Shown here: positions 10,806 to 20,784 of the stretch, one piece after another
Numbering within the stretch: position 1 is the first letter of the stretch
Layout: the number at the start of each line of letters is the position of its first letter
Source: Clostridia bacterium
GTDB lineage: Bacteria > Bacillota > Clostridia > JAAYHZ01
Direction: 5' to 3'
Length of the DNA: 64,000 bases
Assembly: GCA_050950825.1 (NCBI GenBank)
Contig: JBMNIH010000007.1
Span: 128,001-192,000 of the forward strand
Notes under the pieces: model-generated
What the model was told of the DNA's origin: nothing
Seen by the model: the letters and a program-made list of their open reading frames with translations, nothing else
The model's database searches: none
Translations under genes and position numbers: made by a program

Positions 10806-13103
10806 TTGTTAGCAATGAATATGGTTCAAATATTGGATTCACTGAAGAACAACCAAAGGTTCGGTGAAAACATTACAAAATGGGTGGAGATTCCGGAAAG
10901 AGAAGCCGTCTATTGCGACTTTCCTTCTTCCATGGACCAAAGAATCAAGGATGCATTGATGAAACGAGGCATCAAACAACTGTATTCTCACCAAAAAAGC
11001 GCCTTTGAAAAAGCCGTATCCGGAAAGGACATCGTGGTGGTTACTCCGACGGCTTCCGGTAAAACCTTGTGCTTTCATTTGCCGGTATTGGATGCCGTAT
11101 TAAAGGATCCCGATTCCCGAGCCTTGTTTTTGTTTCCCACCAAGGCTTTGGCCCAAGACCAAATGCTGGAGCTTCACGATGTGATCACGGAAATGGGCGT
11201 GGACGTGAAAACCTACACCTACGACGGCGATACGCCCCAATCGGCTCGAAAAGCGGTACGACAAGCGGGCCATATCGTGGTTACCAATCCGGACATGCTT
11301 CATTCCGGTATTCTTCCGCACCATACCAAATGGACCAAATTGTTTGAAAACTTAAAATACGTGGTTATTGACGAGATTCACCACTACCGAGGGGTATTCG
11401 GAAGCCATTTGGCCAACGTGATACGAAGGCTTCATCGCATATGCAGGTTTTACGGATCCGATCCCGTATTTATCTGCTGCTCCGCTACCATCGCCAACCC
11501 GAAAGAGCTGTCCTCTAAAATCATAGGAAGAGAGACGGAGGTGGTGGACAACAACGGGGCTCCTTCCGGAAAGAAGTATCTTTTGTTCTACAATCCCCCT
11601 ACGGTCAATAAGGAATTGGGCATACGAAAAAGCAGCATCAAGGAAGCCTATTATTTGGCGGAGCAATTCATTAAAAACGATATTCAAACCATCATATTCG
11701 CCCAAAGCCGAGTTCGGGTGGAGCTTTTGGCCACTTATTTAAAAAGCATTTTCTTCGGACGCCTGCAGCAGGAGCAGAAAATCCGAGCCTACCGCGGAGG
11801 CTATTTGCCTTTGCTAAGAAGAGAAATCGAACGAGGACTTCGAAGCGGAGAGATACGGGGCGTGGTATCCACCAATGCCTTGGAGCTGGGGATCGATATC
11901 GGCGCCTTGGAGGCCTGTATCATATGCGGATACCCGGGTTCGGTGGCCAGCACTTGGCAGCAGGCCGGCCGCGCCGGAAGAAGAAACGGCGTTTCCGTGG
12001 CCATTCTCGTAGCGGACAGCAGTCCTTTAAACCAATACATCATATCCAATCCGGACTATTTTTTACAAAGCAAATCGGAAAACGCCATGATCAATCCGGA
12101 CAACTTGACCATCCTATACAGCCACATTATGTGTGCCGCTTTTGAGCTGCCCTTTGAGGACGGGGAGGTTTTCGGGCCGAATACCTTGCCGGAGCTGCTA
12201 AAATACATGGAAGAGGCCAAGCTACTTCGCCACGTGCAGAACCGATGGTACTGGATGAGCGAGCAGTTTCCCGCCAACGCCATCAGCCTTCGGACCTCCA
12301 CCAATGAAAACTTTGTCATTATCGATATATCCGATCCGAAGCACAGCGTCATAGGGGAAACCGATTGGTTCAGCGCTCCTATGCTGCTTCATGAAGAGGC
12401 CATCTATATCCACGAAGGGAACCAATACCAAGTGGAAAAATTGGATTACACCGAAAAAAAGGCGTATGTGAGAAGAGTGGACGTCGACTACTATACCGAC
12501 GCCAACCTTGCGGTGGATCTGAAGGTTTTGGAGGTGTTCAAGGAGGACGAAAGCCAAACGATCGGACGGTATTGGGGAGACGTGATGATCTCTGCTTTGG
12601 TTACCATGTTTAAGAAGATCAAGCTTCTTACCCACGAAAACATCGGCGCGGGACATGTGAACCTACCCGAAACCGAAATGCATACGACGGCCTATTGGAT
12701 CACCTTTCCCGAGGAGCTGGAGCGGGAATTGGGAAAAGAAAAGCTGGAAGACGCTCTTCTGGGCTTATCCAACGTGTTGGGCAACTGCGCTCCCTTTTAT
12801 TTGATGTGCGATGTAAAGGACATCCGCGTGGTGTACCATGTAAAATCGGTCTTTACGCAAAAACCCACCATCTATATTTACGACAATGTTCCGGGCGGCG
12901 TAGGCTTCAGTGAAAAACTGTTTACTCTCCATAAAAATCTTTACCAAATGGCGAAGGACCTGATACAAAAATGCGGATGTACAAACGGATGCCCTTCCTG
13001 TATCGGTGCCTATACGGAATTTTCAGGAAGTGAAAATTTGAAGGATGCCATTCTTGCTTTGATTAACATTATTCTTGCCGAAGAAACAAAGACGGTGGAA
13101 TGA
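10806..13103 (+). CDS. mrfA: DEAD/DEAH-box helicase with C-terminal DUF1998 Zn-binding domain (MrfA/YprA)
   Basis: TPTASGKT, PTKALAQDQ, DEIH, SAT, QQAGRAGRR; C-terminal C..CGC..GCPSC. Confidence 0.9.
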   Translation: MLAMNMVQILDSLKNNQRFGENITKWVEIPEREAVYCDFPSSMDQRIKDALMKRGIKQLYSHQKSAFEKAVSGKDIVVVTPTASGKTLCFHLPVLDAVLKDPDSRALFLFPTKALAQDQMLELHDVITEMGVDVKTYTYDGDTPQSARKAVRQAGHIVVTNPDMLHSGILPHHTKWTKLFENLKYVVIDEIHHYRGVFGSHLANVIRRLHRICRFYGSDPVFICCSATIANPKELSSKIIGRETEVVDNNGAPSGKKYLLFYNPPTVNKELGIRKSSIKEAYYLAEQFIKNDIQTIIFAQSRVRVELLATYLKSIFFGRLQQEQKIRAYRGGYLPLLRREIERGLRSGEIRGVVSTNALELGIDIGALEACIICGYPGSVASTWQQAGRAGRRNGVSVAILVADSSPLNQYIISNPDYFLQSKSENAMINPDNLTILYSHIMCAAFELPFEDGEVFGPNTLPELLKYMEEAKLLRHVQNRWYWMSEQFPANAISLRTSTNENFVIIDISDPKHSVIGETDWFSAPMLLHEEAIYIHEGNQYQVEKLDYTEKKAYVRRVDVDYYTDANLAVDLKVLEVFKEDESQTIGRYWGDVMISALVTMFKKIKLLTHENIGAGHVNLPETEMHTTAYWITFPEELERELGKEKLEDALLGLSNVLGNCAPFYLMCDVKDIRVVYHVKSVFTQKPTIYIYDNVPGGVGFSEKLFTLHKNLYQMAKDLIQKCGCTNGCPSCIGAYTEFSGSENLKDAILALINIILAEETKTVE

Positions 13104-13104
13104 G

Positions 13105-14328
13105 ATGGATATCAAAAAACTGTTGGATAAGTACCAAATACGTCCTCAGGTGAAAAAAGAAGATACGGAAAATACGGTTTTAGATCGTGAAATTGACAAG
13201 CTTGTTCCCGGAAAGGTCGTGAACAACGAACACGGCAGCTATTTCATGACGGAGAACAGGTACCCTTTAACCTACCTTTACGGCGGTGTGCCTTTAGGCG
13301 ATCTTTTGGACATCGACGATGTTTCTTTCGAATGTTTGGCGGGAAATCCGTATTTGGATCCGAGGAGGATGCTTTTTTTGGATACGGAAACCACCGGACT
13401 TTCCTCCGGTACGGGAACCGTCGCTTTTTTAGTGGGAGTCGGTTTTTTGGAAGAAGATTGCTTTGTCCTCCGCCAATATTTCATGAGGGATTATCATGAA
13501 GAAGCCTCCTTGCTGTATGATTTGGGTGCGATACTGAAAAACGCCCAAAGCGTGGTGACCTACAACGGCAAATCCTTTGATTTGCCGTTATTAAACGCTC
13601 GTTTTATCGCCAATCGTTTTCGGCCGGGATTCGGCAATCCGGAGCATTTGGACCTTCTGCATATATCCAGGCTGTTTTGGAAGGGCGTTTACGAAAACTG
13701 CAGGCTGTGTACCATCGAAAGAGAAGTTTTAGGGGAAATACGGATCGAAGATATTCCCGGTGAGCAGATTCCTTTGGAGTACTTCCGTTATCTGGATACC
13801 AAAGATGCCACCGTCATGAAAAAGGTTCTTTCCCATAACGAATCGGATATTTTGACTTTAGCCGCTCTTTTGGTGCGTTTTTCCCGCATGGTGAAAAACC
13901 GCTTTTTCTCGGAAGAGGTTGTAGAGCTTACGGGCTTGAGCAAGCTGTATGAAAAAAGAGAGAATTACGACAGTATGACGGAATGCTTGGAAAGAAGATT
14001 TAATTTGGTTCCGGACGCTTGGGACTTTGATTCCCTCCGTCGAATTTCCGTCATATACAAAAGGACAGGAAGATACGACAAGGCTCTTTCTTTGTGGCGC
14101 TACTATTTCGAAAAAGAAGATCTTGACACGGCCATCGGATTAAAGGTCTATGCCGGAACGGAAATCGCAAAGTATTTGGAGCACAAAGAAAGGGATTACC
14201 TGTCCGCTCTGAAAACGGTGAACGAGTTGATTGTATTTTTAAAAAGCAAGCGTATTTTCGGACAAAAATACCTGCCCGAGCTGGATAAAAGAAAAAGCAG
14301 GCTGGAAAAATTGGTAAAACGGCGGTAA
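13105..14328 (+). CDS. mrfB: RNase H-like DEDDh exonuclease with TPR-like tail (MrfB/YprB)
   Basis: FLDTETTGL, YNGKSFD, HLDLL, HNESD; directly follows mrfA. Confidence 0.88.
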   Translation: MDIKKLLDKYQIRPQVKKEDTENTVLDREIDKLVPGKVVNNEHGSYFMTENRYPLTYLYGGVPLGDLLDIDDVSFECLAGNPYLDPRRMLFLDTETTGLSSGTGTVAFLVGVGFLEEDCFVLRQYFMRDYHEEASLLYDLGAILKNAQSVVTYNGKSFDLPLLNARFIANRFRPGFGNPEHLDLLHISRLFWKGVYENCRLCTIEREVLGEIRIEDIPGEQIPLEYFRYLDTKDATVMKKVLSHNESDILTLAALLVRFSRMVKNRFFSEEVVELTGLSKLYEKRENYDSMTECLERRFNLVPDAWDFDSLRRISVIYKRTGRYDKALSLWRYYFEKEDLDTAIGLKVYAGTEIAKYLEHKERDYLSALKTVNELIVFLKSKRIFGQKYLPELDKRKSRLEKLVKRR

Positions 14329-19246: not shown

Positions 19247-19331
19247 ATGTACATTATACAGGAAGACGGATGACTTTGCAACAGAAATACGGGAAAAGGG
19301 AATGTCAATAACAGGAAAAAGAAAAAAGAGC

Positions 19332-19469
19332 AAAAAAATTTGCACTCTTTGGATATAAACGAATGAATGATTCCTGATTGGTCGAGTGCAAATGTCAAAT
19401 CAATTATTCCATATAATTTACATTATAATAAGGAGGAATAAAAATGAAAATAGTATTATTGGTTGTGAC
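19332..19469 (-). ncRNA. Putative small RNA copy 1 (anti-SD/anti-AUG tract, large-loop terminator)
   Basis: TTGCAT-16-TATAAT with extended TG upstream (19503-19476); 10-bp stem 19338-47/19384-93 followed by a U-tract; paralogous to copy 2. Confidence 0.6.
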
Positions 19470-19581
19470 AGTTATATTATAGCACGCTCTCTTTGAAATG
19501 CAAGTACTTTTTCATTAAATTTTTAACAATGTTGTTTCAATTTGTTTAAAAATATGTAAAATAAAATTCTGCAAAAAGAGT

Positions 19582-19717
19582 AAAAAAAATTGCACTCATT
19601 TTATAATCGAATGAATAATTCCTGATAGTTTGAGTGCATTGATTTAAGATCACTAACTCTACTAATAGTAATACTAAAAGGAGGAACAAAAATGAAAATA
19701 GTATTATTAATTGTGAC
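19582..19717 (-). ncRNA. Putative small RNA copy 2
   Basis: TTGCTT-16-TATAAT with extended TG upstream (19751-19724); 8-bp stem 19591-98/19631-38 followed by a U-tract; same conserved blocks as copy 1. Confidence 0.6.
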
Positions 19718-19911
19718 AATACAATTATATCAAGTATCAACAAAAAAGCAATACTTTTACGGAAAATTAAGAAATTTTTCTCATGGAATTCATAGGAAAA
19801 CAAAAGCTTATTCCACGAATTTCCATGGATCTCCAATTGTGCAGAATGAATGTTTACAGACTTTGTAAAACCGGTATAATATAATTGACTAACAGAAAGG
19901 AAGAATCGGAC

Positions 19912-20784
19912 ATGAGTGTAAAAAAAGCAATTATCCCGGCTGCCGGGATGGGAACTCGATTTTTACCGGCAACAAAAGCTCAGCCTAAAGAAATGTTACC
20001 CATTGTAGATAAACCGACAATTCAATACATCATCCAAGAAGCGGTGGAGTCGGGTATAGAAGATATCATCATCATTACGGGTCGTGGAAAACGCGCCATA
20101 GAAGACCATTTTGACAAATCCTACGAGTTGGAAGACATGCTTCGTAAGAAAAACGATATGGAAAAATTAGAGCTCATCGAAGCCATATCCAATTTGGGGA
20201 ACATCCACTACATCCGCCAAAAGGAACCGAAGGGCTTAGGCCATGCCATTTATTGCGCCCGATCCTTTATAGGGAACGAGCCTTTTGCCGTCTTGTTAGG
20301 GGACGACATCGTACGGTCGGACTATCCTTGCTTAAAGCAGTTGATTGATGTGTACGACCGATACAAAACATCCATTGTAGGAGTACAGCACGTGGACCGC
20401 GAAAGCGTAAGCAAATACGGAATTGTTTCCTGTACTCCCATCGAAGAGCGGGTGTTCAAGGTAAACGATATGGTGGAAAAACCCTCCGTAAAATCGGCGC
20501 CTTCGGATATCGCCATATTAGGCCGATATATTCTTTCTCCGGAAATTTTTAAAGAATTGGAACACCTTCCTCCCGGAAAGAACGGCGAGATTCAACTGAC
20601 GGATGCCATGCTGTCATTGTTGAAAAAAGAAATTATTTACGCTTACGAGTTTGAAGGAAAGCGCTACGACGTAGGCGATAAATTGGGCTTTTTGAAGGCC
20701 ACCGTCGATTTTGCTTTGGAAATGGATGATATCAAGAAGGATTTTTTAGATTACTTAAAAGCCGTTGTGGAAAAAACACAATAA
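19912..20784 (+). CDS. galU: UTP-glucose-1-phosphate uridylyltransferase
   Basis: PAAGMGTRFLPATKAQPKEMLP, VEKP, GEIQLTDA. Confidence 0.96.
   Translation: MSVKKAIIPAAGMGTRFLPATKAQPKEMLPIVDKPTIQYIIQEAVESGIEDIIIITGRGKRAIEDHFDKSYELEDMLRKKNDMEKLELIEAISNLGNIHYIRQKEPKGLGHAIYCARSFIGNEPFAVLLGDDIVRSDYPCLKQLIDVYDRYKTSIVGVQHVDRESVSKYGIVSCTPIEERVFKVNDMVEKPSVKSAPSDIAILGRYILSPEIFKELEHLPPGKNGEIQLTDAMLSLLKKEIIYAYEFEGKRYDVGDKLGFLKATVDFALEMDDIKKDFLDYLKAVVEKTQ

Follow-up and report, generated by a model that had tools for sequence, protein, structure and literature searches.

A predicted small RNA family of Clostridia complementary to the Shine-Dalgarno sequence and start codon, with a tandem pair next to an SRP RNA gene

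The window, i.e. the whole 64-kb stretch of DNA analysed here, contains a gap between a divergent nucleotidyltransferase gene, presumably galU, and the SRP RNA gene, which is followed by a dnaX-type gene. Within this gap two related units lie on the minus strand (Table 1). A BLAST search against the whole 3.55-Mb genome (G000) showed that they are 76% identical over 155-164 nt (E 3e-22 and 5e-26). The two diverged copies of the original prediction are thus both present, at the expected distance of 248 bp, and the SRP RNA gene (RF01854) was found next to them, where the prediction had placed it. Each unit reads TTGCwT, 16 nt including a TG, TATAAT, 6 nt and GUCACAA, followed by a complement of a Shine-Dalgarno (SD)-spacer-AUG region, a U-rich linker and then a GCACUC/GAGUGC stem that closes a loop of about 35 nt, with a U tract behind it. 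Re-reading this layout gave predicted RNAs of 136 and 138 nt, in agreement with the promoter, anti-SD/anti-AUG tract, terminator and length of about 136-138 nt that had been proposed for each unit. The proposed promoter elements are present as well, but their spacing needed correction: the 16 nt include the TGn, so that the promoter reads TTGCwT-13-TGn-TATAAT. This 16-nt spacing is held in all five copies of the window's family. Two features are missing from the original prediction, a conserved motif in the terminator loop and a direct repeat upstream of the promoters of homologues.

Table 1. Features of the gap upstream of the SRP RNA gene (positions in the window)
Feature	Position	Strand	Basis or remark
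Nucleotidyltransferase gene	19885..20784	+	divergent flank of the gap
Copy A, sigma-A-type promoter: -35 TTGCTT (19751-19746), 16 nt incl. TG, -10 TATAAT (19729-19724)	19724..19751	-	
Copy A, predicted sRNA, 136 nt (GUCACAA from 19717, U-tract end 19582)	19582..19717	-	BLAST and position reading; model R2 112 bits
Copy A, seed: 5' arm, anti-AUG (19692-19694), anti-SD UUCCUCCUU	19678..19708	-	predicted unpaired, mean 0.93 over anti-SD
Copy A, terminator: stem GCACUC/GAGUGC, U tract, and a long loop whose conserved motif lies at 19608-19624	19582..19638	-	
Copy B, degenerate direct-repeat box, possible OmpR-family site	19503..19530	-	11.5 and 10.3 bits at -49 and -38
Copy B, sigma-A-type promoter: -35 TTGCAT (19503-19498), 16 nt incl. 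TG, -10 TATAAT (19481-19476)	19476..19503	-	
Copy B, predicted sRNA, 138 nt (start 19469, end 19332)	19332..19469	-	BLAST and position reading; model R2 109 bits
Copy B, seed: 5' arm, anti-AUG, anti-SD	19430..19460	-	half-paired in fold (0.53)
Copy B, terminator with loop motif (19360-19376)	19332..19390	-	
Separate promoter of the SRP RNA gene	19253..19281	-	promoter scan; located after second terminator
SRP RNA gene, RF01854	18976..19244	-	Rfam scan; conserved neighbour

A generic promoter and terminator scanner run on the window called neither the promoter nor the terminator of either sRNA, because only three of the six -35 positions match and the loop of the terminator measures about 35 nt. 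According to the covariance model, the genome contains no strong copy besides A and B; a further match (E 0.009) lacked the features of the family and was rejected. Between the promoter of copy A and that of the divergent gene, an imperfect inverted repeat was observed (19790-19835), which was not seen in a genome of the same genus (G001) or one of the same family (G002). Elsewhere in the window a DEAD/DEAH-type helicase gene is followed by an RNase H-like gene (10806-14328), a pair that we take to be MrfA/MrfB-like. At four places of the genome (G000:C6:18106, C3:301987, C11:85011 and C1:97280) the same sequence of about 90 nt recurs unchanged; it contains an anti-SD-like word and is probably one end of an insertion element.

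A DNA search of 60 relatives revealed the pair in G001 and at least one copy, at a contig end, in G002; G005 has one copy immediately before its SRP RNA, and G046 of the same order carries the family too. Most weak DNA matches among the relatives were ordinary gene starts read in reverse. Covariance models built from 5 and then from 30 sequences matched genomes in three further clostridial orders, 85 of 117 in that of G095, 39 of 39 in that of G123 and three of four in that of G086, and 20 of 150 in an even sample of the class (counts including training sequences, with rough E-values). A phylum sample passed through a weak filter gave one match in 151, the window's own genome. As only 21-82 candidates per genome were scored in the large searches and reversed gene starts reach E 1e-4 to 1e-3, the weakest matches and all absences are soft. 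Judged from these matches, the family spans at least five clostridial orders and well over 100 genomes, which bears out the expected homologues with conserved seed and promoter. Promoter, seed, loop motif and terminator are conserved as blocks across at least five orders in spite of differing upstream genes, and the terminator stem covaries. Most genomes have a single copy and the tandem pair is particular to the window's genus (G000, G001), while in several genomes two or three copies are dispersed. Scanning a genome collection with the family-specific seed returned only the two known relatives. A metagenome scan with the loop motif gave 119 stretches, none of which, among those compared, matched beyond the motif, and these were dismissed as chance.

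The SRP RNA gene is the next gene in 20 of 20 loci, mostly of family f55, and in 12 of 20 loci of a set chosen to include second copies. Such a position directly before ffs could indicate a cis element of the SRP RNA locus, namely a leader, an insulator or a terminator guarding ffs. However, ffs has a promoter of its own behind the terminator and copies sited away from ffs, such as those of family f22, have their own promoters. No match was obtained in 19 genomes of family f50, five of which have the SRP RNA without the sRNA before it, and we regard a cis role as very improbable. The copies of f22 (L204, L207, L218, L219) lack the anti-AUG; one of them lies between presumable hpf-like and NUDIX-like genes and the other after a presumable thrC-like gene. 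A shortened copy in family f14 (L211, L212, L213) stands before an SRP RNA of the small type (RF00169), the others being of the large type. At four f50 loci (L266, L267, L269, L270), each from a different genome, and at one of G005 (L008), a short conserved sequence resembling an ORF, some 40-50 codons in length, lies a few hundred bases ahead of ffs.

To describe the RNA itself, we tabulated 77 homologues and counted anti-SD and anti-AUG by eye. UUCCUCC was found in 74 of them, and a CAU (anti-AUG) 4-7 nt before the anti-SD in 65. Eight weak model matches (G358b, G337a/b, G344a/b, G352, G099 and G000c) were left out of the tallies because they are reversed gene starts or lack the features. 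The anti-SD tract is the universal core of the family. In this tabulation and in a 30-row alignment (A2), the 5' arm is near-invariant inside families and different between families. In 21 of 30 folds, the anti-SD was predicted to be largely unpaired, with a mean of at least 0.7. Single-sequence folding of the two units gave no better energies than shuffles (z -1.0 and -1.3), and a 5' stem that was frequent in single folds is not claimed since it is absent from the consensus structure. This consensus is the terminator alone, with nine pairs. Five of the nine are changed on both sides and 96% of cells are paired, a level reached in none of 500 shuffles (slid controls: 22-57%), for a structure derived from the same alignment of related sequences.

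The motif in the terminator loop has invariant positions in all 30 aligned sequences, the linker repeats a short RGUUYAU-like word, and a loop of 30-45 nt is unusual for a plain terminator. These features would suit an RNA that binds proteins or acts as a decoy, in which the U-rich tracts and the AU-rich loop motif are bound by Hfq or another RNA-binding protein and the resemblance to an anti-SD is secondary. The strongest conservation, however, falls on the exact complement of SD, spacer and AUG. The RNA has a single GGA-like word and lacks repeated hairpins, and a CsrC match (E 0.12) lies at another place. A protein-binding role as the main function is in our opinion decidedly unlikely.

Read on the plus strand, the five copies of the window's family show a perfect ribosome binding site (RBS) followed by MKIVLL. 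This might point to a tiny peptide gene, i.e. a type I toxin or a leader peptide, with the minus-strand RNA being its antitoxin or an illusion. The ORFs in these copies, however, vary in length (58, 12, 12, 52 and 17 aa), the U run differs by 1-4 nt among relatives and brings a stop at codon 4 in family f55, and 12 of the 77 homologues have no AUG. Promoter and U tract are confined to the minus strand, the genome yielded no second near-perfect partner, and a search of viral contigs gave no match. Neither a conserved small hydrophobic ORF on the opposite strand nor a long near-perfect partner, as required of a type I toxin-antitoxin system, was therefore found. Since the opposite-strand reading frame is not conserved, selection acts on the RNA strand and not on a peptide; the peptide gene is largely refuted and we give it hardly any credence. 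The units rather have what is expected of a trans-acting base-pairing sRNA, namely a conserved promoter and intrinsic terminator of their own. In keeping with such a role, Hfq was found in five of the five genomes searched for it, including G000.

The promoters of homologues carry a direct repeat, TGTYAY-N5-TDTAAY, at -39, anchored on the -10. A model of this box was trained on 60 of the 77 promoters, omitting the five copies of the window's family, three f14 copies and nine with a doubtful -10 anchor; in 52 of the 60, a box reaching 10 bits or more lies at -38 to -40 relative to the -10. Since the upstream genes differ, the box keeps its position relative to the promoter. An extra half-site 11 bp upstream is common among homologues, and most dispersed siblings have their own box. 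Direct repeats of 11-bp period over the -35 region are typical of activators of the OmpR/PhoB family. In the window, the box is degenerate in copy B (10-11 bits) and hardly present in copy A (5.9 bits), both copies having a more ordinary -35. Strict box patterns recovered the sRNA promoter in five of five genomes each time, plus one other site each; as they return almost only sRNA promoters, they provide no regulon by which the regulator could be named. A genome-wide scan of G000 gave 561 matches, of which 12 have a -10 at the appropriate distance; no clear regulon emerged from them. A Pho-regulon box was rejected, as the pstS upstream regions at five loci have a different, TTAAC-type repeat (6-10 bits, compared with mostly 14-18). 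In G000, no pstS was matched with TIGR02136. The pstS upstream regions of four genomes (L282-L285) share TTAAC repeats of 11-bp period, likely the Pho box of the group. The box resembles the WalR query TGTWAH-N5-TGTWAH given in excerpts of PMC9210968. The CiaR box of the streptococcal csRNAs, according to the excerpted text of PMC3091779, is TTTAAG-N5-TTTAAG located 10 nt before the -10, whereas TGTTAC-N5-TTTAAT ends about 22 nt before the -10 here. On these motifs the box looks WalR-like and not CiaR-like.

For one homologue, RNA runs were available as contigs only (4 of 24 runs, from two studies). Contigs of the upstream gene extend into the RNA in three of these runs, and in the fourth no contig covers it. 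The four runs contain no separate deep contig for the homologue; the SRP RNA has one in three of them. We infer transcription of the units as RNAs of their own from the predicted promoters and terminators.

To obtain candidate targets, duplex energies that ignore accessibility were used to order the start regions of the 2931 genes called in G000. Lipoprotein genes accounted for 9 of the top 30 with copy B (1.2 expected) and for four of 30 with the core alone. When the arm was shuffled, copy B was matched by 1 of 22 shuffles at top 20 and by 6 of 22 at top 40. For copy A, the comparison with shuffled arms gave no lipoprotein effect; the enrichment is weak against shuffled controls. Across 38 f55 genomes, perfect partners of the core were found 17 times outside the RNA, spread over varied gene families; seven are lipoprotein-like starts by eye, at a base rate of 16-23% in G000. 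G000 also contains a large expansion of lipoproteins of about 600 aa with Thr-rich linkers (C3, C4, C9, C11 and others), with 36 and 22 relatives in G001 and G002; one of them was scanned and gave no Pfam match at 1e-8.

The best non-self BLAST match of copy B is the mRNA of an M23 peptidase with a signal peptide (G000:C3:394887-396014), encoded in the operon ftsE-ftsX-M23-ctpA. This candidate was chosen first, from BLAST, and its orthologues in G001 and G002 (76% and 62% identical) played no part in the choice. Both orthologues fall within the top 0-2% when ranked against sampled start regions of G000. Their pairing beats synonymous recodings with p 0.000-0.008 (G001) and 0.008-0.017 (G002), values that may be too small since the recoding was run with G000 codon frequencies only; four-fold sites agree at 31/73 and 19/73, which is near saturation. 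In G000 alone, 8 of the top 40 genes reach p <=0.01 simply by selection. Three other candidates were followed into G001 and G002. Two of them passed in G001, of which one was borderline in G002 and the other did not pass there; the third passed in neither genome. The recoding signal of the M23 gene was absent in G005 and G358 (p 0.35 and 0.66), the pairing ranked poorly in G095, G162, G046 and G176, and a foreign RNA copy ranked well (3%) against the M23 orthologue of G345, a genome without the RNA. Conserved target pairing was thus positive for the M23 gene in three genomes of the window's family and not beyond. The M23 mRNA is the best candidate target predicted in that family, and its predicted pairing is limited to this lineage and not general across the class. 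A search for a target shared by the f55 5' arm was very noisy, and no recurring ortholog stood out among the matches listed, with more than 900 beyond them. In Bacillus subtilis, FtsEX and WalRK control wall hydrolases (excerpts of PMC10216114), by analogy with which the M23 link would be coherent.

The original prediction had offered two modes of action, repression in trans or mimicry of the 16S anti-SD. The former gains from one comparative target signal, that of the M23 gene, and the latter is kept as the weaker rival. As a general translation damper, an abundant copy of the 16S anti-SD would weakly mask many strong RBSs, e.g. during growth slowdown, with no privileged targets. The anti-SD core is indeed the only universal block, f22 having neither 5' arm nor anti-AUG, and the perfect core partners in the 38 genomes are few and scattered. 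One f22 paralogue moreover lies behind a gene that we assume to be hpf-like in four of four such loci. Against a mere damper stands a 5' arm that is near-invariant within families; the M23 codon signal points to specific pairing, and the dedicated activator box suggests a specific response. We therefore hold a general damper to be unlikely.

A comparison with known systems revealed the csRNAs of streptococci, which depend on CiaR, as the closest parallel. According to the excerpts of PMC3091779, they too are multi-copy RNAs, are comparable in size, keep anti-SD and anti-AUG tracts unpaired, have an N5-spaced direct repeat of the OmpR-family type in the promoter and end in a 3' terminator, and they repress their targets via such tracts (also PMC4152353, in excerpt). 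In contrast, inspection of alignment A2 (30 rows) by eye did not reveal the [A/C]UCCUAAA nonamer that csRNAs have near the 5' end, and the csRNA models of Rfam did not match the clostridial units. The long conserved terminator loop, the clostridial host and the linkage to ffs also set the clostridial family apart. RsaE/RoxS and FsrA share a C-rich single-stranded seed directed against ribosome binding sites (PMC4152353, passages on RsaE and FsrA). The clostridial RNAs differ from these two and from LhrC in having one UUCCUCCUU tract fused to an anti-AUG instead of repeated UCCC loops; alignment A2 contains a single C-rich tract, and the RsaE/RoxS and LhrC models of Rfam gave no match. LhrC of Listeria likewise covers ribosome binding sites with a C-rich seed. 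sRNAs of the GcvB/AbcR type repress binding proteins of ABC transporters, and solute-binding lipoproteins are among the candidate targets here; sequence and hosts are unrelated, however, and the enrichment is weak.

Rfam searches gave no match at gathering score for either unit, with chance-level hits only at E up to 10, and no family match for 12 homologue loci at E up to 1; a known Rfam family, which would have spoken against the original prediction, was thus not found. The literature considered, including excerpts of PMC3025663 and 10.1101/2020.08.10.244764, contained no description of the family, although an unnamed listing in transcriptome supplements is possible. Rows 1-30 of the 45 in Table S1 of PMC3025663 (C. 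cellulolyticum H10) have one entry in the gap before dnaX, with the size and conservation of the SRP RNA, and no second one. The family is apparently undescribed, and we regard it as a new family of sRNAs whose mode of action is probably that of the csRNAs, to which it does not belong. To our knowledge, base-pairing sRNAs in Firmicutes tend to have a narrow distribution, and non-pathogenic Clostridia have yielded few of them.

Taken together, we consider it rather likely that the family acts as a regulator-induced translational repressor in trans that covers SD and start codon and has a family-specific 5' arm. Each unit would be a stand-alone non-coding sRNA gene with its own sigma-A-type extended -10 promoter, which in most relatives has a direct repeat over the -35, arranged as at activator sites of the OmpR/PhoB family. 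The RNA would expose the anti-SD and anti-AUG tract and pair in trans over SD and start codon of a set of mRNAs, thereby blocking 30S loading, while the 5' arm would lengthen the duplex into the first codons and set specificity. In the window's family, the M23 peptidase gene would be the best candidate target, followed by mRNAs of sugar-binding lipoproteins. More speculatively, and with a small chance of being right, an envelope-sensing WalR-like regulator might induce the SRP-adjacent sRNA, which would brake the translation of exported proteins, from the RBS into the codons of MKK-hydrophobic signal peptides, including that of the FtsEX-linked hydrolase. If so, secretory load and wall hydrolysis would be throttled at the level of RNA, by an element that is genetically coupled to SRP. 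With its fixed landmark at ffs-dnaX, the family offers a candidate activator box and a candidate cell-wall target, and the proposal is testable at once in a cultured member of these orders. If real, the family is a conserved regulator missing from annotation and an analogue of the csRNAs of independent origin, which may tie a two-component system to the control of cell-wall hydrolases in these bacteria.
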